Source of the DNA: a virus
Lineage: Duplodnaviria > Heunggongvirae > Uroviricota > Caudoviricetes
DNA: 20,803 nt
Strand: one strand, 5' to 3'
Virus record (IMG/VR): IMGVR_UViG_2579778622_000006
Span: 1-20,803 of that record
Positions 258 to 20,803 of this stretch are shown here, piece after piece. Numbering within the stretch: the first letter of the stretch is position 1; each line of letters begins with the position of its first letter. Both the position numbers and the translations under genes were made by a program. The notes beneath the pieces are model-generated. The model saw nothing but the letters and a program-made list of their open reading frames with translations, was not told where the DNA came from and did no database searches.

Positions 258-452
258 TGCGTGTGATTTTTGCACACTTCCGGTTAACGGGTACGATGTC
301 CGGTTTGTTTGTACATTTTTTGCACATGTCCGGTTCGCAGAAAGCATGTTTTTATATTTTTCATATAGTTAACTTGCAGAGAAACCGGACATGGATCCCG
401 AAAAATTTTCATAAATAGTGAAAACGCGCGAGGTCGACGCCCCGTAACGGGT
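258..452 (-). other. cos: lambda-type cos site: cosN-like 12-mer (431-442, GGGCGTCGACCT on minus strand) plus cosB-like repeat region (266-392)
   Basis: Minus-strand read CCGTTACGGGGCGTCGACCTCGCGCGTTTTCACTATTTATGAAAATTTTT is near-identical to the lambda left-end cos as I recall it (GGGCGGCGACCTCGCGGGTTTTCGCTATTTATGAAAATTTTCCGG). Followed by an AT-rich stretch and repeated ATGTCCGGTT motifs (296-305, 326-335, inverted at 383-392). Confidence 0.7.
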
Positions 453-4670: not shown

Positions 4671-6074
4671 AACATCATCCCCATCGACACAAATCACGCC
4701 GTCTTTTTCCAGCTTGGACAGCCAGCGCCGGAAGTGCTTCATCTCATACCCCAGCTTTTTCATATCGTCGCGGAGAAGGGCGATAGTGCATGGCTCTTTG
4801 TGTGCCGTCCGCGTTCTGATGCACTGCCATAGCGCGGTATGGTTTTCCGTCTTGTTGCCTGCCTCCTCGATGCGCTCCAGTTCAACGGGAGAGCGCGGCT
4901 TATCAACCACCACCAGCGACGTGATTAACTCCCCGTCAGCGTCGGTAAAAAGCTCCACCACGCGTAAATCGTAGGCGGCCTCTTTCAGTTCCTCCGCGTC
5001 CTTCATTTTGGTGCAGGATATAACCAGGGCTTTACTGTCTGCACCTTCTCGGCGAATACGGTATTCAGCGTCCAGAGATGCACGAAATGCACTGGAACCA
5101 CGCGCCCCCTTTGTTTCATCCTTGCCGGAATGGTGGACCACCAGCACCGTGGCCCCTGTGCGTCGTTTCAGGTCGTCACATCCACGGATAAACGCCCCCA
5201 TATCCCGCGCGTCATTTTCATCATTACCGCCAAAGCAACGCGCCAGCGTATCCAGAATAATCATGCGTACCGGTTTACCCGTTTCCCGTTCAACCTGGCG
5301 GGAAGCGATAACCATTTCATCAACATCAAGCGGGGCTGCCGGAAAAATCGGGCGGTTTACCAGGTACAGATTTTTCACCCGTTCATCATTAACGATTTCC
5401 CATGCCTTGATACGACGGGGGACACCAATGCCACCTTCACCGACAACATACATCACCGAACCATGCGCCACCCTGCGGCCTCCCCAGTGGCGCCCCGTGG
5501 CAACATGACACGCCCAGGAACACGCAAGGAATGATTTATAGGAACCGCTCGCACCGTATGTGCTGCACAATGAATTAGCCGGAATCACGCCCTTAACGAC
5601 ATAATCAAGCTGTGTGTCGTATCCTGCAGATCCAATGCTCATGGGTAGCGTGGTTTTTCGCTGGCTGTATTGCTCATCAGTAAGTATTTCCCCGCGCTCT
5701 GCCTGTTCGCGGATCCGTTGCAGGTAGTCGCGCCATTCCTCCCGCTTCTGGCTGTGCATTCCCTCGGGGTAATAACTCGCATCCCGTACACCTGCCGCCG
5801 CCAGTTTTTGCCCGATGGCATTAATATTTGATGGCTTGATGTGGCCTGCCTTGTACAGCCGGACACAATAGCGACCATCGTCGATAATTTTCAGGTCTGC
5901 CAGTTCGTCAAGCTGACTGTCTCCCAGCCATACTGGCGGGACGTTATCGCCAGCAAGTCGCCCGTCCTGTTCCTGCCATTGTTTTGCGTGCGCCCAGGCA
6001 TCACTACCTGCAAAAATAATGACTTCGGTCATTTTGTTGTGTGGCTGTTTTTTTAAGTTCGGTGCCAGTTTCAT
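4659..6074 (-). CDS. replication protein: RecA-fold (AAA_25/DnaB-like) helicase with C-terminal winged-helix
   Basis: 471 aa. Walker A GASGSYKS; Walker B-like ILDTLARCF; VLVVHHSGKD motif typical of RepA/DnaB-like ATPases; C-terminal basic wHTH-like segment. Confidence 0.8.
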   Translation of the reverse strand: MKLAPNLKKQPHNKMTEVIIFAGSDAWAHAKQWQEQDGRLAGDNVPPVWLGDSQLDELADLKIIDDGRYCVRLYKAGHIKPSNINAIGQKLAAAGVRDASYYPEGMHSQKREEWRDYLQRIREQAERGEILTDEQYSQRKTTLPMSIGSAGYDTQLDYVVKGVIPANSLCSTYGASGSYKSFLACSWACHVATGRHWGGRRVAHGSVMYVVGEGGIGVPRRIKAWEIVNDERVKNLYLVNRPIFPAAPLDVDEMVIASRQVERETGKPVRMIILDTLARCFGGNDENDARDMGAFIRGCDDLKRRTGATVLVVHHSGKDETKGARGSSAFRASLDAEYRIRREGADSKALVISCTKMKDAEELKEAAYDLRVVELFTDADGELITSLVVVDKPRSPVELERIEEAGNKTENHTALWQCIRTRTAHKEPCTIALLRDDMKKLGYEMKHFRRWLSKLEKDGVICVDGDDVYPL

Positions 6075-6374: not shown

Positions 6375-6575
6375 TTATTTTCCTGTCAGTGATTCCGGCT
6401 TTATTCCGGCGCGAATACAGGCTTCAGAAAAAAAAGCCAGAGAACCAATAACCTCATTATTTCTAAGGCGGCATTGCGATTTCACTTTCCCTTTATCCAG
6501 GAATATCAAAACGCGCCCCGTATAATCAGATGGCACATTAAGCACTACAGGTAAGTGCGCTTCATGATTATTCAT
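6375..6575 (-). CDS. hypothetical protein
   Basis: 66 aa from the ATG at 6575, preceded by a perfect AGGAGG (6585-6590). The longer ORF start at 6644 lacks an RBS. Confidence 0.5.
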   Translation of the reverse strand: MNNHEAHLPVVLNVPSDYTGRVLIFLDKGKVKSQCRLRNNEVIGSLAFFSEACIRAGIKPESLTGK

Positions 6576-6855
6576 GGCTAACCACCTCCTGGAATTTTCT
6601 TCTGTAACGCGCCTCTGCCACATATTCAGCATAGTCCGACGCAATATTGAGAATATCGCTACCCGTTCCTGAATGTTCGGCGGTTTCCAGTAAAAAACAT
6701 GCAGCTTTTACCATGTCAGCAACACATAACAGCGCAATATCTGTATCTTCCGGTGTGCCATCAAATTCCTGTTTCAGGGCATTAAAACGATCATCACGCA
6801 TAACCCCATATTCACAATCAGCAATCAGGATGGCTTTGGCCTCATTCAGTGCCAT
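6568..6855 (-). CDS. hypothetical acidic protein, first clear gene of the leftward replication operon
   Basis: Protein-like C-terminal 95 aa of the 6568-7809 ORF; the stop overlaps the next start by 8 nt. Start is uncertain because the ATG at 6855 has no clear RBS. Confidence 0.45.
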   Translation of the reverse strand: MALNEAKAILIADCEYGVMRDDRFNALKQEFDGTPEDTDIALLCVADMVKAACFLLETAEHSGTGSDILNIASDYAEYVAEARYRRKFQEVVSHE

Positions 6856-7009
6856 ATCAGCGGTAAGCTGTGCGTAGGCCAGCAAATGCGGGATTATTGC
6901 CCCTGTATATTCCGGCTCTCTGATAATGTGGTCGGATGTGTTGATTAAATAGTTTGTGCGAAAAATGCACCTGTAACCATCAGTTAACAACGGATATACA
7001 GGGGGGACC

Positions 7010-7180
7010 ATGAATGATAAGGGGGTGCCGTTTGATGTGCTCCTGCAAAAGCTGAATGCTGCACGCGCCGCAAGGGAACGTGAGCGCATGAGTAATAACC
7101 CTGTCCCTCCTGAATTACCTCGCCCTGAACATTTTCCGCTTGAGGATTTCATCAGGGGACGAATCCGAACAAAACGATAA
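7010..7180 (+). CDS. hypothetical small protein (56 aa)
   Basis: ATG preceded by a G-run; shares the motif FPLE(D/R)FI with the 7424-7618 ORF. Ambiguous: the opposite strand is one long open frame. Confidence 0.25.
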   Translation: MNDKGVPFDVLLQKLNAARAARERERMSNNPVPPELPRPEHFPLEDFIRGRIRTKR

Positions 7181-7231
7181 CCGCCGCCGTGATATGAGGC
7201 ATCACGACGCAATGCATTACAGGTGAGCACC

Positions 7232-7348
7232 ATGAACAAATCCATATTATCCCCCACAGTTCTGGACGTAAACACAAAGCAGCGACAGATATTATTACGC
7301 GCCGTCATTAAAGCCAGACACGAGAAATTAAACCAAATCTTAAAATAA
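7232..7348 (+). CDS. hypothetical small protein (38 aa)
   Basis: AGGTGA RBS 5 nt upstream of the ATG; amphipathic, protein-like sequence. Confidence 0.3.
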   Translation: MNKSILSPTVLDVNTKQRQILLRAVIKARHEKLNQILK

Positions 7349-7423
7349 GATACGCCGCTACCGCTGTAAGTCTTCATCAGAAACAGAAAACGCCAGAGCA
7401 GATGAGCACGGAGGTAACTCTTT

Positions 7424-7618
7424 ATGAAAATAAACGAATCAGGGGAAATTACCGAAGCCAGCGTGGTACGCCAGCGGAGGCGGGAACGACGGGTACGGCC
7501 CCCCGCGCCATCCGATAATTTCCCGCTTGAGCGCTTCATCAGTGAACGGCCCCGCATACGCTGGAACGGCACAACCCCATACCCCGAGGAGAGACAGACA
7601 AAAAACAAACAGCGATGA
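7424..7618 (+). CDS. hypothetical small basic protein (64 aa)
   Basis: GGAGGT RBS 8 nt upstream of the ATG; Arg-rich; FPLERFI motif paralogous to the 7010 ORF. Confidence 0.3.
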   Translation: MKINESGEITEASVVRQRRRERRVRPPAPSDNFPLERFISERPRIRWNGTTPYPEERQTKNKQR

Positions 7619-7897
7619 TGAAATCTGGAGGCCAATACCATCACGCAGCCATCAGGAGATTGCTGACGCGCTTCCTGTTCGCTGGTGGCCTCGATGGTAA
7701 TCACGCGCGGTTGTGCAGTGCTCAGGGCGATAAAACGCCACACAAAGGCCGTTTGTGTGTGCGCCAGGCGTGGGGTATGCTGTCTTACAGCCATAAAACT
7801 ACCTCTCATAACGGTTTGTGGTTAGAAGCCCCGTTACTGCTCCAACAGTGCGGGGCTTCGTCGTTTCAATTGCTGAATTGCATGTATCAGCCCTTGT

Positions 7898-7951
7898 GGT
7901 ATTCAGATTACGTTTTGGTGAATAACATTTCAAGTCTTTTTTGGTATTCAC
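7898..7951 (+). promoter_or_regulatory. candidate operator repeats upstream of the RHH gene
   Basis: TGGTATTCA at 7898-7906 and 7942-7950, with an inverted partner GGTGAATAA at 7916-7924 (TATTCA-N12-TGAATA dyad), in the AT-rich region upstream of the 7995 start. Confidence 0.35.
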
Positions 7952-7994
7952 TTTTGTATTACACTGCATCACGTTATTAATCGGAGGTGCAAAC

Positions 7995-8300
7995 ATGTCC
8001 ACGAGTTCTGTTAACAATAAGTCACAGCAACTGAATGCCAGATTTCCACATGAAGTAGTGAGTGGCATTGAGGCATCCCTACAGCCGGGGGAAACTAAAG
8101 CGAATTTTATAGTTACGGCTGTACGCGGAGAGATCGCCCGCCGCCAGGCAGAAGGAAGAGGAGAAAATCCCCTAGTTTCTTCGCTCGATGCACTGGCGCA
8201 GGTGGAAAAAATCGGTGTCAAAGCTGCCGAGGAGATCGGGCAACTCGTCGCCGTTGCGCGTGAAGAACTCCAGCGGCGCAAAGCCAAAGAGCAGGAATAG
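7995..8300 (+). CDS. ribbon-helix-helix-like DNA-binding protein with coiled-coil C-terminus
   Basis: 101 aa from the ATG at 7995 (GGAGGTG RBS). N-terminal beta-strand/helix pattern (LNARFPHEVVSGIEAS...KANFIVTAVRGEIARR) typical of RHH/Arc-type regulators; followed by a terminator. Confidence 0.6.
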   Translation: MSTSSVNNKSQQLNARFPHEVVSGIEASLQPGETKANFIVTAVRGEIARRQAEGRGENPLVSSLDALAQVEKIGVKAAEEIGQLVAVAREELQRRKAKEQE

Positions 8301-8331
8301 CCCACCAGCAAGCCACCACACTGATCACATT

Positions 8332-8360
8332 GGCCACCGTGACAGGTGGCCTTTGTTTTG
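8332..8360 (+). terminator. rho-independent terminator after the RHH gene
   Basis: GGCCACC-gtgaca-GGTGGCC followed by TTTGTTTTG. Confidence 0.6.
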
Positions 8361-8454
8361 CCTGTTATCCGGCAATTGTGGAGCTTCGTCACACGGTTGA
8401 TATAATTCCCCTGCTCAGATTCATTTTTTGCGCGGCAGGTAAATTGTTCAGAAA

Positions 8455-8482
8455 GGCGGCTCCTTATCGGGGCCGCTTTTTT
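8455..8482. terminator. second hairpin with T-tract between the convergent RHH and alpA genes
   Basis: GCGGC-tccttatcgg-GCCGC followed by TTTTTT (8477-8482) on plus; possibly bidirectional. Confidence 0.4.
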
Positions 8483-8508
8483 CGTGTTTGTCATATCTGT
8501 GATACCCG

Positions 8509-8715
8509 TTAAGCAGCCGTTCCGCGTGCTTCCTGTTCGCGTTCTTTCTGCCAGGCCAACACATCATCCTCATACCATCCGCGACGGCGTAAACCAACGC
8601 GAAAACCCTGCGGAAATTCTCCGGCGTTGATCATGCTTTGCAGCGTGCTGTCTGCCTTGATGTGGATAATTTTTTTTACTTCCTGGCGAAAGATAATTTT
8701 TCTGATTGCTTCCAT
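8509..8715 (-). CDS. alpA: AlpA-family phage transcriptional regulator / excisionase-like HTH protein
   Basis: 68 aa; pattern IIFRQEVKK...GEFPQGFRVGLRRRGWYEDDVLAW matches the AlpA/Vis HTH_17 architecture. Confidence 0.8.
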   Translation of the reverse strand: MEAIRKIIFRQEVKKIIHIKADSTLQSMINAGEFPQGFRVGLRRRGWYEDDVLAWQKEREQEARGTAA

Positions 8716-8848
8716 CGTGATTTACCTTGTGAATCCGGTGTATTCCGGTGACAAATACGGTAAATCATCGGATATGGGTAAAAACAGTTCCCACCGTTTT
8801 TAAACGGTATACACCGTTTTTTATATTGATGATTTGAAATGGAATTAT

Positions 8849-8872
8849 AAAAAAAGCGGCATTTCTGCCGCT
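8849..8872 (-). terminator. rho-independent terminator after the orf83/int transcript
   Basis: AGCGGCA-gaaa-TGCCGCT on minus followed by TTTTTTT (plus 8849-8855 is an A-run); 10 nt past the stop at 8883. Confidence 0.55.
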
Positions 8873-8882
8873 TCCAGGATTG

Positions 8883-9134
8883 TTACCGCCATTTTTTGGG
8901 CCTGCCTCCGATCTTCATAGATGCCGGACGTACGACCTTATCAATACTTACCGCCAGATTTCTGGAAGCGCCACGGGATACCAGAAAATCTACTACCTGT
9001 TTTTTTGATGGGGCCGTCGTCCTGTCCTCCGGATCGTAGGTTGACCAAAATTCATGCTGAACCATCAGGGCCAGTTGCAGCCCGTCGCAATTGCATCTGA
9101 TATTTTTTTGCATCTTAACGGTTTCATGTTTCAC
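8883..9134 (-). CDS. hypothetical protein between int and alpA
   Basis: 83-aa ORF (GTG at 9134 or ATG at 9113) with a terminator directly downstream. Start uncertain. Confidence 0.45.
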   Translation of the reverse strand: MKHETVKMQKNIRCNCDGLQLALMVQHEFWSTYDPEDRTTAPSKKQVVDFLVSRGASRNLAVSIDKVVRPASMKIGGRPKKWR

Positions 9135-9211
9135 GGCCTTGTCGTTAAATTTGATGCAATTATACGACGGTTTTACATGGTTTTCGTAGTTTTTACTGGT
9201 TTTCTGTACAG

Positions 9212-10453
9212 CTACACGGCTCGGATACCCCTTTTACCACTGGCGAGGGTTACGCCCGTCGCCGCAGCCTCGACAAATTCGCCCCACCAGCGCATCAGCA
9301 CGATGCGTTTTTCTATGTAGTTGCTCCGGTTGTATGCCCGTCTAACTTCGTTGGTGTCGACGTGGGCAAGTGCCGCCTCTATTACGTCCGGCTCGAATCC
9401 TTCCTCGTTCGCTGCTGTGCTGAATATGGCGCGTAATCCATGAGACACCAGCACGCCAGCGAATCCCATACGCCGCAATGCTGCGTTAGCTGTCTGGCTG
9501 TTCATCGGCTGCTGTGGGTCTTTCAGACTTGGGAAAACGTAATTGCGGTGGTGGCTGATTGGTTTCATGGCCTCCAGCACCGCCATAGCCTGACCGGAAA
9601 GCGGGATAACGTGATCCCTGCGCATCTTCATGCGTCCGGCAGGTATCGTCCATTGCTTCGCGTCCAGGTTGATTTCATCCCACCGCGTTGATGACGCTTC
9701 GGCGGGACGGGTTACGGTCAGTAACTGCCATTCAATCAGTAATCTGGTCTGCCGTTCTGTTGCCGATACTGATAAAGCCTGCATAAGCTCGGGCAGCTGT
9801 TCGGGGCGGATTGTTGGCATATGTTTTTTTACAGGTGAGGGAAACGCCTTACGCACATTCATAGCCGGATTGGCATCAATCAGCCCACTGTTGGCGGCGT
9901 AATCCATTACCTCATTAACGCGCTGTAAAACCCGCTTGAGTGTTTCCAGGTTGCCGCGCTCCTTGATGGGGGTAAGCACTTCAACGAACCTTCGGGCGGT
10001 GAGGGTATCTATTGGCGTGTTGCCGATGAACGGGAATACATATTTATCCAGCGAACGCCAGATGTCTTTAATCGTGTTGGGGGCCAGATTCTGGCTGATT
10101 TTCACCTGGTACCATGCCGCCGCCACATTTTCGAACGTGTTCCCTTGTCTTCGGGCCTCTGTCTCTCTTTTTTGCCTCTCGTGGTCCTGCGGGTCAGTTC
10201 CGGCACTGATTAACGTCCTGTACTCGCTACGGCGTTTTCTGGCATCAGCCAGGGAAACATCTTCAAGCGATCCAAAACTCAGCAATATTCTTTTTTTGTC
10301 CGATGGTCGGTAGTAGGAAAATCTCCAGAGTTTTGATCCAGACGGTTTGACCAGGAGAAAAAGCCCTCCGCCGTCCTGCAGGGTGTACTCCTTTTGCGCT
10401 GGTCTGGCTGCTTTGATCTGCACTGTGGTTAATGGGTGTGTTTTTCTCGCCAT
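9212..10453 (-). CDS. int: tyrosine recombinase, P4-type integrase
   Basis: N-terminal arm-binding-like domain (LTTVQIKAARPAQKEYTLQDGGGLFLLVKPSGSKLWRFSYY), catalytic C-terminus with R...HGLR and terminal RAYNRSNY (Tyr). Adjacent to the tRNA 3' remnant. ATG at 10453 preferred over the GTG at 10471. Confidence 0.9.
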   Translation of the reverse strand: MARKTHPLTTVQIKAARPAQKEYTLQDGGGLFLLVKPSGSKLWRFSYYRPSDKKRILLSFGSLEDVSLADARKRRSEYRTLISAGTDPQDHERQKRETEARRQGNTFENVAAAWYQVKISQNLAPNTIKDIWRSLDKYVFPFIGNTPIDTLTARRFVEVLTPIKERGNLETLKRVLQRVNEVMDYAANSGLIDANPAMNVRKAFPSPVKKHMPTIRPEQLPELMQALSVSATERQTRLLIEWQLLTVTRPAEASSTRWDEINLDAKQWTIPAGRMKMRRDHVIPLSGQAMAVLEAMKPISHHRNYVFPSLKDPQQPMNSQTANAALRRMGFAGVLVSHGLRAIFSTAANEEGFEPDVIEAALAHVDTNEVRRAYNRSNYIEKRIVLMRWWGEFVEAAATGVTLASGKRGIRAV

Positions 10454-10485
10454 ATGTCTATGATTCCACACGAAAAAACAGGGTT

Positions 10486-10539
10486 TTAGTTATACGGCTT
10501 TAGTTATACGTCAGCCCGTATAACTAAACGTATAACTAA
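10486..10539. repeat. integrase arm-type site candidates: four 11-mers TTAGTTATACG (two direct, two inverted)
   Basis: Direct copies at 10486-10496 and 10500-10510; inverted copies CGTATAACTAA at 10517-10527 and 10529-10539; between the int start and the att core. Confidence 0.5.
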
Positions 10540-10590
10540 AAAATCCGGCTGATAGCTTATAAATCCGGTGATGTTCGGTGACTAAAAAAC

Positions 10591-10625
10591 ATAAAAAAAC
10601 CCGCCAATCAAGTGATTAGCGGGTT
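10591..10625 (-). terminator. hairpin with U-tract downstream of the tRNA 3' remnant (weak terminator)
   Basis: AACCCGC/GCGGGTT stem with a 14-nt loop; the A-run at 10593-10599 on plus gives a U-tract on minus. Confidence 0.35.
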
Positions 10626-10636
10626 ATCCCTGTCTT

Positions 10637-10664
10637 ATCCGGTGCTTTCCGGTGATATCCGGTG
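10637..10664. repeat. three tandem (A/T)TCCGGTG heptamer-core repeats at 10-bp period next to the att core
   Basis: ATCCGGTG (10637-10644), TTCCGGTG (10647-10654), ATCCGGTG (10657-10664). Related copies at 10564-10580 and at 8731-8750 in the alpA promoter region. Confidence 0.45.
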
Positions 10665-10671
10665 GGCGATT

Positions 10672-10720
10672 TGGTCGGCACGAGAGGATTTGAACCTCCG
10701 ACCCCCGACACCCCATGACG
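10672..10720 (-). other. tRNA-Pro (GGG-type) 3'-end fragment, 49 nt, not an intact gene; integration (att) junction
   Basis: Minus-strand read CGTCATGGGGTGTCGGGGGTCGGAGGTTCAAATCCTCTCGTGCCGACCA equals the anticodon-loop-to-CCA portion of E. coli tRNA-Pro as recalled; the sequence 5' of it cannot form the acceptor or D arm. Confidence 0.65.
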
Positions 10721-11857: not shown

Positions 11858-13036
11858 TTAGCTGGCTTTAATTTCTCCATGGGGAACGACAACCCAATCT
11901 ATATGATTTTGCGTGTAGATCTTGGTTGACTTCGCATCGCTGTGCGCCATTCGTCCTTGTGGATCGATACCCTGCTGATCGAATAGATGCGCTGCTAGTG
12001 CTCGAATTTCGTGAAAGGTTGGTCTTTCATCCATTGGTAGATTGTCGCATAAACCTAGTTTGTCCCGTGTAGCTGAAAACGACCTACTCAAATAGTCCGG
12101 TGCAACTTGAGTAGGATGTGAAACCTCTTTGCTGCGTTTAACTTGGCGTTCTGGGATCCTGTGAACGACAAACGGACTGGCCACATTATCTCGGCTATCG
12201 TCAATTATCCGTTTCAACTCTTCACCAATTGGTATTGCAACGTGTGACGCCTCTTTTTGTTGCACTTTTTGCCTGTGGATGTAAAGCGTCCCATATATGC
12301 CATTTTGTGGTTGTTCGAACCAGACACATCCACATATACCGTCTTTAGGTTCGCGAATTGAGTAACGGATTCGCGATACTTCGAGTCGTGCATGTGTAGT
12401 CTGCAATGCTAGGTCCATTGCTGTTCTTAACCATGGTGCAGCGGCCTGCCTGATAGCTATAAAATGCTCGAGTGACAGGCGCCGTCTTTTCTTCTCATCA
12501 GTCCTACGCATTTTTTTTCTGATGGCCGGGTTATCCAGCATTAGTGATTCATCGACCGCATAAGAGAACAACTTTTTAAGAAAGCTGACCTTTCTGTTCT
12601 GCACATTTGCGGATGCGCTGGCATGATATTTGTTGATGTAGGTATTAACGTGTTCAAGTTCGATATCGCATGCCGGAACATTTACGAAAAACGCTTTTAC
12701 GCGTAGAGCGTCATTTTTCCAGTCATCTAAGGTGCTCTGGGAAGGACGTTCGTCTTCGATAATTCGGGCCATTATGTGATCAACATGTTCAGCAAATGGT
12801 TTTGCTTCTCCGATAACACCGCCAGATTCTCTAATAAGATTATCTACTGATGGAGATAATTCTGGTCGCATCCTCAGGTTGTACTCTCTGGCGATTGCAA
12901 TGGCTATTGCCCTATCCTTACCTATATTTTTCTTCTTTCCGGTAATAAGTGTGAATTTATAAACACCTCGATCTTTATCAAAAATCAGATAATCAGGAAG
13001 ATGTCTGTATTCTTTTTTACGTGGCCTTGCCGCCAT
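11858..13036 (-). CDS. int: tyrosine integrase, lambda Int family
   Basis: Aligns to recalled lambda Int in several blocks (LSLEHFIAIRQAA..WLRTAMDLA vs LTADEYLKIYQAA..WLRLAMELA; RPTFHEIRALAAHLF vs PPTFHELRSLSARLY). ATG at 13036 with GAGGGGTGA RBS; the ORF-track start at 13042 is a GTG. Confidence 0.9.
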   Translation of the reverse strand: MAARPRKKEYRHLPDYLIFDKDRGVYKFTLITGKKKNIGKDRAIAIAIAREYNLRMRPELSPSVDNLIRESGGVIGEAKPFAEHVDHIMARIIEDERPSQSTLDDWKNDALRVKAFFVNVPACDIELEHVNTYINKYHASASANVQNRKVSFLKKLFSYAVDESLMLDNPAIRKKMRRTDEKKRRRLSLEHFIAIRQAAAPWLRTAMDLALQTTHARLEVSRIRYSIREPKDGICGCVWFEQPQNGIYGTLYIHRQKVQQKEASHVAIPIGEELKRIIDDSRDNVASPFVVHRIPERQVKRSKEVSHPTQVAPDYLSRSFSATRDKLGLCDNLPMDERPTFHEIRALAAHLFDQQGIDPQGRMAHSDAKSTKIYTQNHIDWVVVPHGEIKAS

Positions 13037-13038
13037 GG

Positions 13039-13248
13039 TCACCCCTCATTTATTAACTTGCGAACAGCTTGACTAACCATTGAGTCGACTCCCCATTTTT
13101 CTGTTTCGCAGACAAAAACAGAACCGTCCACGATACGCCCCATGAGCAGACCGTTCTCGACCCAGCGTTTTATCGTTCGGTTGTCAGGAATTGAGCCATT
13201 AGAGAATTCACGGCGTCCCCATTGGCTCGCTTTCATTAGTTTTGCCAT
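13039..13248 (-). CDS. xis: excisionase (Xis-like)
   Basis: 69 aa from the ATG at 13248 (GGAGAAA RBS). Pattern ASQWGRREF...RTIKRWVENGLL...DGSVFV resembles lambda Xis (LQEWNARQ...ETVRRWVRE). Lies immediately upstream of int. Confidence 0.7.
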   Translation of the reverse strand: MAKLMKASQWGRREFSNGSIPDNRTIKRWVENGLLMGRIVDGSVFVCETEKWGVDSMVSQAVRKLINEG

Positions 13249-13309
13249 GGCTGTTTCTCCACTTAACCCGCTGCACACGGGCAGTAATATCAAATTTCAG
13301 TCCTGATAA

Positions 13310-13525
13310 TTAATTTTGTTCTATGGTTGCTACCTGTTTAATTGGCCTGATGCTGTCCAGGAGCAGTCGGCGGCGCGTATTTTCTGCAAAGTGGCGGCGT
13401 CCGGTTTCTTTGTGGTAAAACTCGTTTTTTCCGACGACCCACATCCGCTTTGTCTGGTGCAGTTTTTTTACCTGCGGACCGTTTCGGGTAATAACAATTC
13501 CTGTATGAGTTTTTATCACGCTCAT
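13310..13525 (-). CDS. hypothetical protein
   Basis: 71-aa ORF with GGAGAA RBS; start overlaps the upstream stop (ATGA). Confidence 0.5.
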   Translation of the reverse strand: MSVIKTHTGIVITRNGPQVKKLHQTKRMWVVGKNEFYHKETGRRHFAENTRRRLLLDSIRPIKQVATIEQN

Positions 13526-13884
13526 TTCTTATTCTCCGGTGCTTTCGGCATTACTGCCCAGTGAGTGATATTGACGTTTTCAAGGTCCCCGACCTGAAAT
13601 GTCCACTGCCATTCTCCGGTTTCTTTTTGCCCCCATGTGTACCAGAGAGAACGCCAGCCAATCAGCCAGCCTTCTCCGTTAGCATCAAATAACAGAACAC
13701 TTTCATTTGCTGGTGGCAGTTCAGCTGACACTGGTATTACTTTGTTTTCCAGTGCTGCACATTTAGCTTCAAGCGCATCTAATTTACGCACCAGGTATTC
13801 AGCATCCGTTTCATTCACTTTCAGGTCTCGTGGTACACATCTCCCGCGAAGAAACCCTTCCATTTCGAAAACATTCATGCGCAT
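13522..13884 (-). CDS. hypothetical prophage protein (Trp-rich C-terminal domain)
   Basis: 120-aa ORF, GGAG RBS 8 nt upstream of the ATG; coiled-coil N-terminus and Trp-rich C-terminus. Confidence 0.5.
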   Translation of the reverse strand: MRMNVFEMEGFLRGRCVPRDLKVNETDAEYLVRKLDALEAKCAALENKVIPVSAELPPANESVLLFDANGEGWLIGWRSLWYTWGQKETGEWQWTFQVGDLENVNITHWAVMPKAPENKK

Positions 13885-14411
13885 TTGCGTAACTCCGATA
13901 ACTCGTGAAAGCGTTCCATAAACATCCCGTAGGCATGGCCCGGTGGCATTGGAATCACGTTGAACATCTCTGTTGCCGGGATGCCTTCCAGTACAGGCCA
14001 GAAAGAGCCATCATCAAGCCCGAGATCGCGGCGTTCGGTTGCCAGCATAATGAGATCGGCATATTTCACTGGCGTGCTCATAACAGGAGGTAACCCGTAT
14101 TTCTCACGGATTACGGCGTCTATTTTTTCTTCCATCCGTTTATAGTCAGGAAGAAGGCGTTTCAGTGGAGCGGGGATGTCCTGGCAATACGCTTCTGTTG
14201 CATCATGCATTAACGCTTCAAAAGCAAATTCCTGCGGTACCAGCTGGCTGCAAAGAACCGCATGTTGGGCGACGCTGTAGAAGTGTGAAAGATGTCCTGC
14301 AAAGCGACAGATATTTGAAAGGGAAACCGCGATATCGTTAATATCGATGTTGTCTTTATTTATCCGGTCATAATAAAAATGCTTCCCGGAAAAAGTTTTA
14401 ATAAATGACAT
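13875..14411 (-). CDS. HD-domain metal-dependent phosphohydrolase
   Basis: 178 aa from the ATG at 14411 (GGAG RBS); H...HD signature (VAQHAV ... ALMHDATEAY). Confidence 0.7.
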   Translation of the reverse strand: MSFIKTFSGKHFYYDRINKDNIDINDIAVSLSNICRFAGHLSHFYSVAQHAVLCSQLVPQEFAFEALMHDATEAYCQDIPAPLKRLLPDYKRMEEKIDAVIREKYGLPPVMSTPVKYADLIMLATERRDLGLDDGSFWPVLEGIPATEMFNVIPMPPGHAYGMFMERFHELSELRKCA

Positions 14412-15082
14412 TTCGTTCTCCACGTTATATGCGCTGCACCGCGTTGAATTTTGGTTGCAAGAATCCCTCGCCATCCGGCGATTATTGAGTCAATTACGTT
14501 TCCATAAATGCCCCCGCAGGGGCGGTTAGTTTCTCCACAAAACAGAGAAGAACACCTACGGTAGTCACTGCCGGATGGATTGGGTTATGAGCCCATCGTC
14601 CGGTGATGCTCTTCTCTGTTTTGTAAAAAGGGCGGTGCCAGAAAGGACTAAGGAAAAAACTGGTACCGCCAAAGCAATGGCAGTTGTGGTGGGGTTGTCA
14701 CTCAGGCGTATGGTCAACCTGACAACCCGGTGTCCTCAACGGGGAAAGAGTAACCCCGCCATACTTACCGCCGCGCCATTTCGCGGATTACCACAACGCA
14801 GAGAGCACTTAGCCAGTTACGGCACCACACTTTGTCGCGGTTCCATAAATGCCCTCATCGTTGCACCCTGGTCTCTTCCCAGGCGTCAAACCGAATCGCC
14901 ACGCTGGTTAGGCGTCTTATCAGCATCCTCATTGACTTGCACATTCCGGCTACCTGGTTTGTTTGCCCGAGCAAGGAGTGGATTGTCCCCTTTAACGTCT
15001 CCAGACCGCTAACGACGCATGTGCCATACGCCGTGTTACAACCAAATTTTGTTTGAATCTTGCCTGCTTCATGTTTCTTTTG

Positions 15083-15109
15083 GGTACATTATGTATCTCA
15101 AAGGTACAT
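15083..15109. promoter_or_regulatory. candidate left operator (O_L) dyads
   Basis: GGTACAT-t-ATGTATC (15083-15097) overlapping ATGTATC-tcaaa-GGTACAT (15091-15109); same half-site family as the dyads flanking the cI start. Confidence 0.45.
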
Positions 15110-15153
15110 TGTCAAGTATAAAAAAACCTGCCGAAGCAGGTTCATAACATTGA

Positions 15154-15828
15154 TTAGGCTTTGATTTTGTATCTTCTTGGTTTTCCTGAGAAAATTACTG
15201 TACCAATTATAGAGCAATTACCGTTGATCTTAATGTAAGGCTCAGGCCAGTTTGGGTTTAATGCTTTGAGATAACGCTGTGTTCCATCTTCTATCAATCG
15301 CTTGAAGGTGGTTTCGCCTGTATCGTGCATCAACGCAATAACGTCGTCACCGTGGCAAGCAGGGACTTCAGGATCAACAAAAATCATGTCTCCCGGGCGG
15401 TACTCATCAATCATTGAATCACCAATCACCCGCAAGATATAAGTCATTTCGCCACAGGGTACAGGGCAGGGATACGTTTCCGCTGTGCTCAAATCAACCT
15501 CAGAATAACCAACTTCTTTCCATGCTCCGGCCTGTACCCATGATATGACAGGAACTAACGTAATTTGTTTGTTAGTGATTGAAACATCAGGTTTTTTTGT
15601 GATGTTTGTTGTCTGGTGTTCTTGATCAAGCCATCCGACAGGCAGGTCGAAGCATTTTTCGATGTGCCGTGCCATGCTGTCACCGATATTTTTAGTGGCG
15701 CCATCCCCCATAAACCTGCTGGTTTGGGTTGGCTCGCGATCAATCATGGTGGCAAAGGAAGAATTCCCGCCAACACCATCTCTCAGTTTTCTGGCGTTAG
15801 ACCGCCGGATGTCATGGACTGTTTTCAT
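15154..15828 (-). CDS. cI: CI-like prophage repressor with S24 (LexA-type) autopeptidase domain
   Basis: 224 aa. C-terminal S24 signature with catalytic Ser in VIGDSM and Lys in TFKRL; N-terminal HTH-type region; divergent from the cro-like gene across palindromic operators; no strong SD. Confidence 0.85.
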   Translation of the reverse strand: MKTVHDIRRSNARKLRDGVGGNSSFATMIDREPTQTSRFMGDGATKNIGDSMARHIEKCFDLPVGWLDQEHQTTNITKKPDVSITNKQITLVPVISWVQAGAWKEVGYSEVDLSTAETYPCPVPCGEMTYILRVIGDSMIDEYRPGDMIFVDPEVPACHGDDVIALMHDTGETTFKRLIEDGTQRYLKALNPNWPEPYIKINGNCSIIGTVIFSGKPRRYKIKA

Positions 15829-15844
15829 AACGAAATTAAAACCT

Positions 15845-15915
15845 TTGTACCGTTAAGGTACAAGTATCTTGAAGGTTCATTTCAATCATGTAATATGTAT
15901 ACCGGGGGTACATAT
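15845..15915. promoter_or_regulatory. right operator region (O_R) with two palindromes between cI and cro-like starts
   Basis: TTGTACC-gttaa-GGTACAA (15845-15863) and ATATGTATACC-ggg-GGTACATAT (15893-15915). Confidence 0.5.
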
Positions 15916-15918
15916 TGT

Positions 15919-16119
15919 ATGAAAGCGTATTGGAACTCTTTAACCAAAGAACAGCAGGGCGATTTGGCCGGAAAAGTTGGTTCAACACCTGGCTACTTAC
16001 GGCTGGTTTTCAATGGCTATAAAAAAGCCAGCTTTGTACTGGCTAAAAAACTTGAGCAATGCACATCAGGAGCAATTACGAAATCTGACTTAAGACCGGA
16101 TATCTATCCGAAAGATTAG
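15919..16119 (+). CDS. Cro-like HTH regulator (Cro/YdaS-like)
   Basis: 66 aa from the ATG at 15919, immediately after the O_R dyad; HTH-like segment LAGKVGSTPGYLRLVFNGYKKAS; divergent from the repressor. Confidence 0.6.
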   Translation: MKAYWNSLTKEQQGDLAGKVGSTPGYLRLVFNGYKKASFVLAKKLEQCTSGAITKSDLRPDIYPKD

Positions 16120-16150
16120 CAGAAGACCTTCAATTTTTAACCACAGAACG

Positions 16151-16714
16151 ATGAGGCTAACCGTGGGTAAGCATCACTGGAAAGTAAAAAAACAGCCTGA
16201 GTGGTATGTGAAAGCGGTCAGAAAAACTATCGCGGCGTTGCCGGGTGGTTATGCTGAGGCTGCTGACTGGCTGGATGTAACAGAGAACGCATTATTTAAC
16301 CGCCTTCGTGCAGATGGCGATCAGATTTTCCCGCTGGGATGGGCAATGATTTTGCAACGTGCTGGTGGCACTCACTTCATTGCTGACGCTGTGGCGCAGT
16401 CTGCAAATGGCGTCTTTGTGTCTCTTCCTGATATCGAGGATGTGGACAACGCCGATATTAACCAGCGCTTGCTGGAAGTCATTGAACAGATTGGCAGTTA
16501 TTCCAAACAGATTCGTTCGGCAATCGAAGACGGTGTGGTGGAACCGCATGAGAAGACAGCAATTAACGACGAGCTGTACCTGTCAATTTCGAAGCTGCAG
16601 GAGCATGCAGCACTGGTCTACAAAATTTTTTGCGTTTCAGAAAGTAATGACGCCCGCGAGTGTGCAGCTCCGGGCGCCGTGGCGTGTCGTGACTGTGGAG
16701 AAACTAACGCATGA
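16151..16714 (+). CDS. hypothetical early protein (position of a CII-like regulator)
   Basis: 187-aa ORF. The ATG at 16151 lacks an SD; the GTG at 16163 has a GAGG RBS. Stop overlaps the next ORF start (ATGA). Confidence 0.5.
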
Positions 16715-17049
16715 ACAGTTTAACAACACACTACCGTCGCTCGCAACTGATTGCGCTTCCTGTACCGGGTGGAAAAGCGAAGGTGGAATATTGCTATGCA
16801 GTGAATGTACCAGGTGACAGGGAAATTGTAACCCACAGCTTTGCAGAGTGGGCTGTGGGTGATTTCAACCGGCAGAAGGAGACAGTCCTTTGCGACAAGT
16901 TAACCGCTGGTTCAAAGATCACTACGGAGTGCCCGTCAGAGTCATTCGTTGGGAGCCGGAAACACAACGGGTTATCTACCTCCGCGAAGGTTATGAGCAT
17001 GAATGCTTCAGTCCGCTCGAACAGTTTCGTCGTAAATTCAGGGAAATAG
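16711..17049 (+). CDS. hypothetical protein; 3' half doubtful (possible frameshift or overlapping small gene)
   Basis: ORF start coupled to the upstream stop; the first 57 aa are protein-like, the rest is Ser-rich, while an alternative frame (16890-17069) is protein-like. Confidence 0.3.
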
Positions 17050-17058
17050 AGGTCGGTC

Positions 17059-18000
17059 ATGAGCACTAAATTAACCGGCTATGTATGGGATGGTTGCGCT
17101 GCATCAGGCATGAAGTTATCCAGCGTGGCAATTATGGCCCGCCTGGCTGATTTCAGTAATGACGAAGGTGTGTGCTGGCCATCAATTGAAACCATTGCCC
17201 GCCAGATTGGCGCGGGGATGAGTACCGTCAGAACGGCTATCGCACGGCTGGAAGCAGAAGGCTGGTTAACGCGTAAGGCGCGTCGCCAGGGTAACCGCAA
17301 TGCGTCGAATGTTTATCAGCTTAACGTTGCGAAGCTTCAGGCAGCGGCATTTTCTCAACTGTCAGATTCTGACCCGTCAAAATCTGACGCATCAAAATCT
17401 GACCCGTCAAAATTTGATGCGTCGAAATCTGGCAAAAAAGCGGGTTTTCACCCGTCAGAATCTGGCGGGGATCCGTCAGTAAAATCAAAACATGATCCGT
17501 CAGATAAAAATACTTCTCGTCCGGACGCTTCGCAACCGGACACGCAGACGGCTGAACAGGAGTTTTTAACTCGCCATCCTGATGCGGTTGTATTCAGCCC
17601 TAAAAAGCGCCAGTGGGGAACGCAGGATGATTTGACCTGCGCACAGTGGCTCTGGAAAAAAATCATCGCCCTGTACGAGCAGGCCGCCGAATGTGACGGC
17701 GAGGTGGTTCGTCCCAAAGAACCGAACTGGACAGCCTGGGCAAACGAAATTCGCCTGATGTGTGTGCAGGATGGTCGTACTCACAAACAAATCTGCGAGA
17801 TGTACAGCCGCGTCAGCCGCGATCCGTTCTGGTGCCGTAACGTGCTCAGCCCGTCGAAGTTGCGGGAAAAATGGGATGAGCTTTCCCTGCGCTTATCACC
17901 GTCCGTCAGCACGTACACCGAAAAACGCGAAGACCCGTACTTCAAATCCAGTTACGACAACGTGGACTACAGCCAGATCCCGGCAGGATTCAGGGGGTGA
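17059..18000 (+). CDS. replication initiation protein (lambda O-like; N-terminal HTH origin-binding domain)
   Basis: 313 aa. N-terminal HTH-like domain (VAIMARLADFSNDEGVCWPSIETIARQIGAGMSTVRTAIARLEAEGWL), a repeat-encoded linker and a C-terminal domain; iterons inside the gene. Confidence 0.7.
   Translation: MSTKLTGYVWDGCAASGMKLSSVAIMARLADFSNDEGVCWPSIETIARQIGAGMSTVRTAIARLEAEGWLTRKARRQGNRNASNVYQLNVAKLQAAAFSQLSDSDPSKSDASKSDPSKFDASKSGKKAGFHPSESGGDPSVKSKHDPSDKNTSRPDASQPDTQTAEQEFLTRHPDAVVFSPKKRQWGTQDDLTCAQWLWKKIIALYEQAAECDGEVVRPKEPNWTAWANEIRLMCVQDGRTHKQICEMYSRVSRDPFWCRNVLSPSKLREKWDELSLRLSPSVSTYTEKREDPYFKSSYDNVDYSQIPAGFRG
17361..17465 (+). repeat. iteron array inside the O-like gene (putative prophage ori)
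   Basis: Four tandem 15-bp units TCTGAC(C/G)C(G/A)TCAAAA at 17368-17427, plus degenerate copies to about 17465, followed by an A-rich stretch; encodes SDPSK/SDASK pentapeptide repeats. Confidence 0.5.
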
Positions 18001-18002
18001 TC

Positions 18003-18491
18003 ATGAGTCTTTTGAATGAAGTTCAGAAATTCATTGAAGCCCATCCGGGGTGTACTTCCGGAGACATTGCGGATGCTTTTGCAGGTTACTCACGGCAGCG
18101 CGTTCTGCAGTCAGCAAGCAAGTTACGTCAGAGTGGGCGTGTAGCTCACCGTTGTGAAGGAGATACACGCAGACATTTCCCACGCCTGACTGAGAGAGCG
18201 CAGAAGCCGGAACCACAACCAGTTCGTGAAACCAGACCTGTGCGCAATTTCTATGTCGGCACTAACGATCCCCGGGTGATTTTGTGCCTGACCCGCCAGG
18301 CGGAAGAACTGGAGTCCAGGGGCTTATACCGTCGTGCTGCAACGGTGTGGATGGCGGCATTCCGTGAAAGCCACTCCCAGCCAGAACGAAACAATTTTCT
18401 GGCGCGTCGTGAGCGGTGCTTACGGAAAAGCAGCAAGCGCGCTGCATCGGGTGAAGAGTGGTATCTGTCAGGGAATTACGTGGGGGCTTAA
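18003..18491 (+). CDS. winged-helix plus PerC-like domain protein
   Basis: ATG at 18003 with AGGGGG RBS. N-terminal wHTH-like region; C-terminal AEELESRGLYRRAATVW, the same motif as the satellite PerC-like gene at 3461-3781. Confidence 0.5.
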   Translation: MSLLNEVQKFIEAHPGCTSGDIADAFAGYSRQRVLQSASKLRQSGRVAHRCEGDTRRHFPRLTERAQKPEPQPVRETRPVRNFYVGTNDPRVILCLTRQAEELESRGLYRRAATVWMAAFRESHSQPERNNFLARRERCLRKSSKRAASGEEWYLSGNYVGA

Positions 18492-19144
18492 TGAGTAATA
18501 AATATTGCCAGGCGCTGGTGGAGCTGCGGAACAAACCAGCCCATGAACTGAAGGAAGTGGGCGATCAGTGGCGCACGCCGGATAACATTTTCTGGGGAAT
18601 TAACACCCTGTTTGGCCCGTTTGTTCTGGATCTGTTCACTGATGGTGATAACGCCAAATGTGCCGCTTATTACACTGCGGAAGACAACGCGCTGGCGCAT
18701 GACTGGTCTGAACGTCTTGCGGAGCTTAAAGGTGCTGCCTTTGGTAATCCCCCATACAGCCGCGCCAGTCAGCATGAGGGGCAATACATCACCGGCATGC
18801 GTTACATCATGAAGCATGCCAGTGCCATGCGTGATAAAGGCGGGCGCTATGTTTTCCTGATCAAAGCTGCCACCAGCGAAGTGTGGTGGCCGGAAGATGC
18901 AGATCATATTGCTTTTATTCGCGGGCGTATTGGTTTTGAACTGCCTGTCTGGTTTATCCCGAAAGACGAGAAGCAGGTGCCGACAGGAGCGTTCTTCGCT
19001 GGTGCTATTGCTGTTTTCGACAAGACCTGGAAGGGACCGGCAATCAGCTACATCGGGCGCGATGAACTTGAGGCATGTGGTGAGGCCTTTCTGGCGCAGG
19101 TTCGCCAGCAGGCAGAAAAACTTGTCAGGGAGATGGCGGCATGA
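18491..19144 (+). CDS. phage N6-adenine DNA methyltransferase (Dam-type)
   Basis: 217 aa from the ATG at 18491 (overlaps the upstream TAA); catalytic NPPY motif (GNPPYS). Confidence 0.8.
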   Translation: MSNKYCQALVELRNKPAHELKEVGDQWRTPDNIFWGINTLFGPFVLDLFTDGDNAKCAAYYTAEDNALAHDWSERLAELKGAAFGNPPYSRASQHEGQYITGMRYIMKHASAMRDKGGRYVFLIKAATSEVWWPEDADHIAFIRGRIGFELPVWFIPKDEKQVPTGAFFAGAIAVFDKTWKGPAISYIGRDELEACGEAFLAQVRQQAEKLVREMAA

Positions 19145-19467
19145 CGACGTTAACTCAATGCCAGCAGCAGGTGCTGGATATGCTGATTTCTTACCAGAAA
19201 GAGCGTGGCTTTCCGCCAACCAATCAGGAGGTGGCAACCATGCTGGGATACCGTTCAGTGAATGCAGCAGTGGAGCATCTTCGCGCACTGGAGAAAAAAG
19301 GCGTCATCACGATAAAGCGTGGCGTGGCCCGGGGCATCACGCTTCATACCGCGGTGAAGGACGACGACAGCGAGGCGGTCGGGATTATCCGCTCACTGCT
19401 TGCCGGTGAGGAAAACGCCAGGCTGCGTGCAGCCCACTGGTTACATGAGAGGGGCCTGAAAGTATGA
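19141..19467 (+). CDS. LexA N-terminal DNA-binding-domain-like protein lacking the S24 peptidase domain
   Basis: 108 aa; LTQCQQQVLDMLISYQKERGFPPTNQEVATMLGYRSVNAAVEHLRALEKKGVITIKRGVARGITL aligns residue-for-residue with the recalled E. coli LexA N-terminal domain. No GDSM/K catalytic region. Confidence 0.65.
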   Translation: MTTLTQCQQQVLDMLISYQKERGFPPTNQEVATMLGYRSVNAAVEHLRALEKKGVITIKRGVARGITLHTAVKDDDSEAVGIIRSLLAGEENARLRAAHWLHERGLKV

Positions 19468-19853
19468 AGCTGATTCTGCCGTTTCCGCCCAGCGTGAACA
19501 CGTACTGGCGACACCCCAACAAAGGGGCGTTTGCTGGTAAGAGCCTGATAAGCACGGCGGGACGCAAATTCCAGGGCGCGGCGTGTGCCGCCATCATTGA
19601 GCAGTTACGTCGTCTGCCGAAACCAACGTCGGCACCTGCTTCAGTGGAGATCGTGTTGTTTCCACCGGACAACCGGATCCGCGATCTGGACAACTATAAC
19701 AAGGCACTGTTTGACGCCCTGACCCACGCGGGTGTGTGGGAAGACGACAGTCAGGTGAAAAGGATGCTGGTGGAGTGGGGACCGGTTATCCCGGAAGGGA
19801 AGGTCGAGATCACCATCAGTAAGTACGAGAAAACGGCGGGTGCAGCCGCCTGA
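19464..19853 (+). CDS. rusA: RusA-family Holliday junction resolvase
   Basis: 129 aa; LPFPPSVNTYWRH ... RDLDNYNKALFDALTHAGVWEDDSQV matches RusA (LPWPPSNNRYYRH ... [26 protein letters not shown]). Confidence 0.85.
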   Translation: MKLILPFPPSVNTYWRHPNKGAFAGKSLISTAGRKFQGAACAAIIEQLRRLPKPTSAPASVEIVLFPPDNRIRDLDNYNKALFDALTHAGVWEDDSQVKRMLVEWGPVIPEGKVEITISKYEKTAGAAA

Positions 19854-19872
19854 TCAAGAGGAGAAACGAAGT

Positions 19873-20682: not shown

Positions 20683-20689
20683 GGTGACC

Positions 20690-20803
20690 GTGAGAGCACT
20701 ACTGCCCCCTGAAATTGCCCCGCGTATGGGGATCGTATTGTTCAGACCAGGTTCAGAGCTGATGCCCCTGTTTATGCAGGGGCGTGTCCTGCTGGAGCCT
20801 GAG
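20690..20803 (+). CDS. partial CDS (5' end only), unknown function, continues past window end
   Basis: Open frame from GTG 20684/20690 to the window edge; protein-like (ALLPPEIAPRMGIVLFRPGSELMPLF). Confidence 0.3.
   Translation, partial: MRALLPPEIAPRMGIVLFRPGSELMPLFMQGRVLLEPE

Follow-up and report, generated by a model that had tools for sequence, protein, structure and literature searches.

What do the inverted repeats in front of alpA do? The window analysed here is the whole 20,803-nt stretch of IMG/VR record IMGVR_UViG_2579778622_000006 (positions 1 to 20,803), and the repeats lie in the upstream region (8716-8880) of alpA, a minus-strand gene (8509-8715) for a 68-aa AlpA/excisionase-type winged-helix regulator. 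An initial annotation had described three heptamers at this place as a triple inverted repeat and had named three possible roles, an operator, a switchable terminator or the 3' end of an antisense RNA. Four heptamers were found, and we take them, with a probability of about 60%, to be a DNA-level tandem operator in the alpA control region, judging from their symmetry, phasing, conservation and position; the terminator and antisense roles found no support, the hairpin being weak, unfed by transcription and uncompensated in relatives. Tandem operators in front of regulatory genes are elements of a common kind.

The three heptamers were located exactly where they had been reported, ACCGTTT at 8793-8799, AAACGGT at 8802-8808 and ACCGTTT at 8813-8819. 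The description as a triple was incomplete: a fourth half-site, AAACAGT (8782-8788), had been overlooked, and the four together make two tandem palindromes of 18 bp (AAAC(N)GT-N4-AC(N)GTTT), at 8782-8799 (one mismatch) and 8802-8819 (perfect). The palindrome centres are 20 bp apart, and the pair doubles as a 20-nt direct repeat with a 20-bp period. The alpA-distal palindrome, O1 (8802-8819), is the sequence previously called a terminator-like hairpin; it reads AAACGGT-ATAC-ACCGTTT on the plus strand and H1 (AAACGGT), GTAT and H2 (ACCGTTT) in the alpA sense. The alpA-proximal palindrome, O2 (8782-8799), reads AAACAGT-TCCC-ACCGTTT on the plus strand and H3 (AAACGGT), GGGA and H4 (ACTGTTT) in the alpA sense. 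Both are situated 67-104 nt 5' of the alpA ATG, downstream of an intrinsic terminator. The pattern AAACGGT-N4-ACCGTTT with at most one mismatch was matched twice in the window against 0.01 expected, a count reached in 0 of 100 shuffles, and no further copy was found in the window even with three mismatches allowed.

Conservation was assessed in 109 related loci, drawn from metagenomes, IMG/VR contigs and complete E. coli genomes. They reduce to about 30 different versions of the alpA upstream region on the int side, in two clades with about 78% identity. Among these 30 sequences, to which the counts below refer, H4 was invariant, H3 and H2 each varied in one, and H1 was the most variable half-site (AAACAGT in 18, AAACGGT in 8, and AAATGGT, AAACTGT, AAACGAT and AAACGTT once each). 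The N4 spacers occurred in seven and four forms. Variable columns made up five of 28 in the half-sites (mostly singletons) versus eight of 10 in the spacers (Fisher p = 0.0009), and no indel was present within the 40 bp; the flanks do carry indels. Position 5 of the half-site was occupied by G, A or T without a corresponding substitution in any partner half-site, and on this alignment looks like a degenerate contact position and not a base pair. A 21-bp deletion in two loci (L077, 1553-1728, and L078) has removed exactly one repeat unit and left a single palindrome, showing that the repeats are modular.

Dyad symmetry with conserved half-sites and a free central spacer was thus combined with fixed helical phasing of the adjacent sites, and a conservation pattern of this kind is the signature that dimer-binding half-sites held at fixed phasing would be expected to leave. 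The palindromes are most likely protein-binding operator sites. The sequences show the anatomy, conservation and fixed spacing of the repeats, the absence of further palindromes in the window and a recurrence of direct repeats upstream of int (see below); that a protein binds here, which protein this is, the sign of regulation and the place of the transcription start are inferred. Two dimers of one sequence-specific regulator would sit on O1 and O2, on the same face of the helix and probably cooperatively, and the bound regulator would set whether RNA polymerase starts alpA in the gap of about 135 bp between the terminator (8852-8875) and the start codon.

Wider sampling was carried out beyond the island family. 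A metagenome scan anchored on a block of direct repeats near alpA (described below) returned 36 loci and no new half-site variant, and a genome contig scan for wider AlpA relatives gave four loci only. The nearest wider relative, in E. albertii (L011; AlpA 63% identity), has quite different upstream repeats and no small open reading frame (ORF), and because its repeats differ it adds no power to the comparison; in L011 (2210-2368), GGAGCCAATTT occurs four times at an 11-bp period and a 22-bp unit, CCCATTATTTAAAGTCAGAAGA, three times. A scan of viral contigs for the single palindrome gave scattered lone matches at about the chance rate, and BLAST of the alpA upstream region against 50,697 phage records gave no match. 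The sole array returned by the viral-contig scan (L198) was rejected as an unrelated 29-bp tandem repeat. An informal comparison with the motifs of LexA, CRP, IHF, NarL, KdgR, GntR-type and other E. coli regulators gave no convincing match.

Promoter sequences were sought on the alpA strand with a standard and a relaxed scan, neither of which found a conserved sigma-70 promoter; the absence of a consensus promoter is consistent with factor-dependent transcription of alpA. The only positionally conserved -10-like element on this strand is a weak candidate abutting H1 (8820-8825, minus strand), which reads TATAAA here and CATAAA or TG-n-GATAAA in relatives. If the start is set by this element (8825-8820), the palindromes would lie at about -6 to +32, the geometry of a repressor; with a start near 8745-8750 instead, the palindrome centres would fall near -41 and -65, the geometry of an activator.

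Several points weigh against a protein operator, or against parts of the mechanism given above. Activation and repression would differ in where transcription starts, and both of the geometries given above are possible. The relatives all come from one E. coli island family and their half-sites barely vary, so the signal is one of conservation and not of co-evolution with a protein. The palindrome scans of phage collections yielded nothing above chance. A nested RNA hairpin would also give conserved half-sites and variable spacers, and 98.9% of cells pair in such a fold. Lastly, the half-site (C)ACCGTTTT and the direct repeat CACCGGAWW have a CACCG core in common, and the distal and proximal alpA-upstream repeats of the island EcCICFT073 use one motif, so AlpA could read both classes here.

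The direct repeats just mentioned form a separate array between O2 and the alpA Shine-Dalgarno sequence (8732-8763, minus strand), with three head-to-tail copies at 10-12-bp phasing, TTACCGTATTT (8763-8753), CACCGGAAT (8750-8742) and CACCGGATT (8740-8732). They are essentially invariant in the 30 relatives, and a 10-bp duplication in two loci (L005, 2705-2890, and L042) has produced three CACCGGAAT-type copies instead of two. The motif CACCGGAWW recurs upstream of int (10562-10664, minus strand), with three tandem copies at a 10-bp period (10664-10636) and two more at 10580-10562, and the tandem triplet starts 7 bp from the tRNA-Pro 3' fragment that forms the attachment (att) core. Phased pairs were found at these two places only in the window (four observed versus 0.46 expected). 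Comparable layouts were seen in EcCICFT073, where ACAAC repeats with a 10-bp period occur after int and near alpA, with a 14-mer common to the int upstream region (L114, 1338-1365 and 2688-2742), and in the unrelated island L256, where GGGGGTAC stands upstream of both alpA and int (2592-2640 and 4811-4821). The recurrence of an alpA-upstream motif between att core and int in three unrelated islands of the phage-inducible chromosomal island (PICI) type suggests that one protein, AlpA or Int, couples excision to alpA control.

RdfS and BldC bind head-to-tail sites one turn apart, and RdfS has such sites at its own promoter and at att (PMC11963761). The direct repeats were assigned to AlpA or Int because their layout is that used by excisionase-type winged-helix proteins, and by this analogy they are probable binding sites of AlpA, as a recombination directionality factor (RDF), or of Int. 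An array of the RDF type, head-to-tail, one turn apart and beside the att core, is what the CACCGGAWW repeats form; the palindromes are inverted and absent from the att arm, and the direct repeats are the likelier AlpA/excisionase site of the two.

Candidate readers of the palindromes were AlpA, the product of a 76-aa open reading frame next to alpA, a helper-phage factor and a host factor. As the first choice we propose a dimeric protein distinct from AlpA, through which the signal of the helper phage would reach alpA. It could be an activator that the phage encodes or releases, or a repressor whose action the helper abolishes; AlpA itself would use the CACCGGAWW repeats beside the ribosome-binding site. 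The alpA promoter region of EcCICFT073 and EcCIMP1 receives two inputs, a helper-phage inducer, whose identity has not been established, and autoactivation by AlpA (PMC6092414, PMC11773190); the two motif classes found here match these two inputs. A separate regulator also fits the confinement of the palindrome to the alpA upstream region and a dyad symmetry that is atypical for the winged-helix fold. A further proposal, put forward tentatively and with more doubt than confidence, is that the helper-phage signal enters through the tandem palindrome, as the docking site of the inducer or as the operator of an unrecognised repressor inactivated by the helper, and that the palindrome works with a conserved, undescribed int-X-alpA module. 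A repressor of this kind would be unexpected, Gram-negative PICIs being currently regarded as having no master repressor.

The explanation that survives best beside a separate regulator is that the palindromes are AlpA's own distal sites, which we hold to be possible though on balance improbable. The CACCG core would then be read in both orientations, with H1-H4 and the three proximal repeats forming one array for positive autoregulation; the element would still be a protein operator, and only its reader would differ. The outward half-site, (C/T/A)AC(C/T)GTTTT, can be set beside CACCGGAWW, with the first direct repeat (ACCGTATTT) intermediate between them; the two classes nevertheless differ at four of nine positions. 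The upstream repeats change with the alpA allele (E. albertii, CFT073, L256), as expected if an island-encoded protein reads them, and in EcCICFT073 a distal group (five ACAAC at a 10-bp period) and a proximal group (two GACACAAYCC) have one motif. On the other side, the palindrome is absent from the att arm and the int upstream region, where the direct repeat recurs. Winged-helix recombination directionality factors of the Xis/AlpA type typically bind head-to-tail repeats about one turn apart, not 7-4-7 palindromes. BldC and RdfS are examples of such head-to-tail binding (PMC11963761), and a 7-4-7 palindrome is atypical for factors of this kind. Autoactivation of the alpA promoter by AlpA in EcCICFT073 and EcCIMP1 (PMC6092414, PMC11773190) speaks for AlpA as the reader.

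The third gene of the int-alpA segment was examined beside the palindromes. A 76-aa ORF (8883-9113, minus strand) is a stand-alone copy of an unannotated C-terminal domain of about 60 aa with the pattern FWSTYD-x5-TAPTK...LRP..LRK.GRPKK. The domain occurs in 636 cluster representatives, mostly 'hypothetical' proteins of 190-300 aa without a Pfam, PHROG or NCBIfam match, and in the two long homologues whose context was examined (E. coli and Enterobacter islands; L256, 4001-4720, and L260, 4001-4732) the gene occupies the int-X-alpA slot; from this gene order the PICI integration module would appear to have a third gene, conserved and so far undescribed. The 76-aa product had no sequence match in Pfam, PHROG, NCBIfam or PDB, and its profile comparison with AlpA was not significant. 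Its AlphaFold 2 model (pLDDT 80) consists of three helices and a basic tail, and a fold comparison at E <= 0.001 returned nothing. The ORF co-occurs with the palindromes, and both are absent from CFT073 and the E. albertii relative. The product was considered as the palindrome reader and set aside as unlikely: the domain hardly varies between islands whose X-alpA spacers hold different repeats, a pattern that speaks against a sequence-specific reader, and no fold match was obtained. In a 90-aa protein (P0036), from a contig attributed to Cooperia oncophora, the first 42 residues of the small ORF are fused to the last 48 of AlpA, which amounts to deletion of the entire intergenic control region; despite the nematode label, the contig is evidently bacterial contamination.

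An RNA element in the alpA leader, in the form of a nested minus-strand hairpin ending in U5, was weighed next and is considered improbable. It would act as an attenuator or 5' stability element and be overridden by a helper factor or an AlpA-type antiterminator. The alpA-sense fold, with H1:H4 as the outer and H2:H3 as the inner stem, has -17.2 kcal/mol (z = -3.3), and 0 of 200 shuffles were as stable; the pairing extends across all 30 sequences in the proportion given above, and a G-to-A change of H1 in the diverged clade turns a G-U pair with H4 into A-U. A precedent for such control is AlpA of P. aeruginosa, which acts by antitermination and overcomes a terminator located beyond the site where it loads (PMC7969949); the ABE motif of that system, GGGACG-N5-GGTA, is absent here. 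Covariation tests of H1:H2 and of the nested H1:H4 and H2:H3 stems found no double changes in the 30 sequences. As no pair changed on both sides, the pairing says no more than the symmetry of the DNA, and the single variants AAACTGT, AAACGAT and AAACGTT break the outer stem without compensation. The -10-like element that abuts H1 would moreover place H1 at or before the transcript start, the U-run belongs to the stem, and the site fails the terminator scan on the minus strand. A comparison of the whole window with Rfam 15 gave nothing at gathering score, and within 8400-9200 no family reached E <= 1. The initial annotation had also read the half-sites as alternative hairpins: the four can indeed pair alternatively, but no pair showed covariation, and four DNA half-sites give such hairpins automatically.

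A second leader stem is possible at 8718-8767 (minus strand), with 9 bp between TGATTTACC (8767-8759) and GGTAAATCA (8726-8718). It encloses two CACCGG repeats and covers part of the alpA Shine-Dalgarno sequence; 99.6% of its cells pair, and a single compensatory change, from U-A to A-U, sets the clades apart. The support for this stem, coming from a single compensatory event, is weak; if real, it would place the start upstream of 8767 and would favour a leader RNA. In the unrelated island L256 an inverted repeat also lies over the alpA Shine-Dalgarno sequence (4899-4908 / 4922-4931).

The plus-strand hairpin of O1 was assessed as an intrinsic terminator. A consensus scan did list 8802-8819 as terminator-like on the plus strand, with a 7-bp stem, three G-C pairs and a 4-nt loop. 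The T-rich tail 3' of the third heptamer is TTTATATT, and a T6 is obtained only if the stem's own TTT is counted; the tract past the stem (TTTATATTGA) is three T followed by mixed A/T, which is within a lax scan criterion of five T in eight. The H1:H2 hairpin has -6.6 kcal/mol (z = -1.7), and 12 of 200 shuffles folded as well, so that a stable G+C-rich stem-loop was not found on this strand; a stronger terminator (-15 kcal/mol, z = -4.0) stands 40 nt away. Counted on the alpA-sense strand, the central pair of the hairpin is unpaired in 20 of the 30 sequences, 18 of which have G-U on the plus strand, and through this G-U pair the stem survives in the diverged clade; in several relatives the pairing is broken, and no compensatory changes were seen. 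The stem falls to -1.7, -1.2, -0.3 and -3.4 kcal/mol, uncompensated, in L005, L042, L055 and L087, it is deleted in L077 and L078, and its 3' arm, H1, varies more than any other half-site. The earlier statement that no plus-strand gene precedes the hairpin was correct: the nearest, YlcI/YnfO-like within ORF 7941-8300, is followed by its own strong terminator-like hairpins (8332-8351 and 8450-8482), and no plus-strand ORF or conserved plus-strand promoter feeding the hairpin was found among the window ORFs or in the promoter scan. A promoter-like TTTAAA-17-TATATT on the plus strand overlaps the hairpin; it points away from the hairpin, however, and conservation of its -10 is lacking, the diverged clade having TTATCT. 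A terminator made of AAACGGT-ATAC-ACCGTTT and a T-run, at which a short antisense RNA to the alpA leader would end, is on these grounds very improbable.

The stronger terminator is that of the int/76-aa-ORF transcript (8852-8875, minus strand), GGAAGCGGCAGAAATGCCGCTTTT followed by TTT, and it would isolate alpA from transcription upstream. A different hairpin with T7 takes its place in the diverged clade; the terminator columns are misaligned between the clades, and the covariation count there is therefore uninformative.

On the minus strand the genes and elements follow in the order P4-type int (9212-10471), 76-aa ORF, terminator, palindromes, head-to-tail repeats, Shine-Dalgarno sequence and alpA. 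The alpA product scored 17.6 bits with Pfam Phage_AlpA, under the 21-bit cut-off; PHROG assigns it to 'excisionase and transcriptional regulator' and RefSeq to 'AlpA family transcriptional regulator'. Leftward of alpA lie an Icd-like ORF and then a RepA/AAA_25 helicase, and SSB, PerC, ProQ/FinO, major capsid protein E (Phage_cap_E) and head decoration are annotated on these genes by identical relatives. Co-oriented int and alpA at one end, followed by replication and capsid genes, together with an att site, were thus all present, and the organisation matches that of EcCICFT073 itself, which was fetched for comparison. The element is a Gram-negative PICI of the EcCICFT073 type, with a 99.3% identical copy in E. 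coli Nissle 1917. Its alpA region was matched in 374 of 5426 complete E. coli genomes, and the island adjoins tRNA-Pro/yejM in every E. coli locus fetched; the window copy has only the tRNA-Pro 3' fragment (10672-10696, the att core) 3' of int, and ARAGORN finds no tRNA.

The island abuts a temperate prophage (11858-20803) with a lambda-type int, an S24 CI-like repressor, CII/CP76, an HTH_36 replication protein and KilA-N. Satellite and prophage are a tandem array at one att site, and the prophage may be a resident helper.

Other features of the island were recorded in passing. Just upstream of int (10486-10539), TTTAGTTATACG occurs twice direct and twice inverted, and in the diverged clade each of these copies carries the same T-to-C change (TTTAGCTA...); the motif is also found upstream of a related int in E. 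albertii (L011, 843-899). A concerted change of this sort would be typical of co-evolving protein sites, and the copies may be Int arm-type sites or an int operator. Downstream of alpA (6568-8494, minus strand) there are two ORFs, one of 413 aa whose N-terminus is Icd-like and one of 231 aa with an odd composition. In the relative L001 a single 595-aa 'Icd-like' protein is annotated instead, and the identical strain B771 has a frameshifted pseudogene annotated at this place. The region appears degraded in the window copy. Downstream of the capsid module (279-334, minus strand), two copies of AACCGGACAT and one of AACCGGAAGT occur at 20-30-bp spacing, each followed by a GTGCAAAAA- or GTAC-type sequence; these repeats could be a packaging or replication site.

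The locus matters because alpA acts as the switch linking a Gram-negative PICI with its helper phage. Induction and transfer of EcCICFT073 require alpA (PMC6092414), and EcCIMP1 behaves likewise with phage Kapi1 (PMC11773190). Helper-phage induction and transfer through alpA are known for EcCICFT073, EcCIEDL933 and EcCIMP1, not for the allele in the window. The helpers published for PICIs are lambdoid or P22-like phages, lambda, phi80 and Kapi1 (PMC6092414, PMC11773190), and whether a master repressor exists in Gram-negative PICIs is described as unclear (PMC6092414). The phage-side inducer of alpA and its DNA elements are not identified in the available text of the PICI literature, and no mapping of the cis elements of the alpA promoter was found in that text, including PMC6092414 and PMC11773190. 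What is provided here is a map for a widespread E. coli island family, with two palindromes, three phased repeats that recur in the att arm, a terminator that would insulate alpA, and a possible leader stem. The natural one-operator (L077, L078) and three-repeat (L005, L042) variants are ready-made mutants. If the palindromes are the helper-responsive site, they could be used as bait for the inducer or a hidden repressor; if they are AlpA sites only, the arrangement would be routine autoregulation.

Tandem palindromic repressor operators read cooperatively by dimers at a switch promoter are present in lambda OR1-OR2. O1 and O2 resemble these as adjacent 17-18-bp dyad sites roughly two helical turns apart; they differ in having no sequence similarity and no CI/Cro-type gene beside them. 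The P4 late promoter PLL, upstream of vis, a homologue of alpA, is helper-activated through an upstream dyad for Delta/Ogr and is under negative feedback by Vis. The likeness would lie in a helper-activated promoter in front of a satellite AlpA/Vis gene with a dyad site upstream; the P4 dyad, TGT-N12-ACA centred near -55, is missing from the sequence upstream of alpA, and the prophage genes checked in the window included none of Ogr/Delta type.

The P. aeruginosa module (PMC7969949, PMC9371919) is similar in having an AlpA-named regulator, a promoter-region DNA element and hairpins downstream (terminator tB). Its ABE lies between -35 and -10 (PMC7969949) and does not occur in 8716-8880, and, unlike in that module, no terminator was called between repeats and alpA on the minus strand and the 68-aa AlpA is under the Pfam cut-off. 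EcCICFT073 differs from the window in its alpA allele, in the lack of a 76-aa ORF and of AAACNGT palindromes, and in its direct repeats (ACAAC, 10-bp period); EcCICFT073 and EcCIMP1 are like the window in element type and gene order, and the alpA-upstream repeats of CFT073 also recur upstream of int. The rdfS promoter of the integrative and conjugative element ICEMlSym R7A has an inverted-repeat box for the dimeric activator FseA and RdfS's own sites, the latter also in attP (PMC11963761). This promoter belongs to a rhizobial element of unrelated sequence and has one box instead of a tandem pair, and its binding and transcription start have been mapped. The two are alike in that the promoter of an excisionase-type winged-helix gene combines an inverted repeat with excisionase-type sites that recur in the att region upstream of int.

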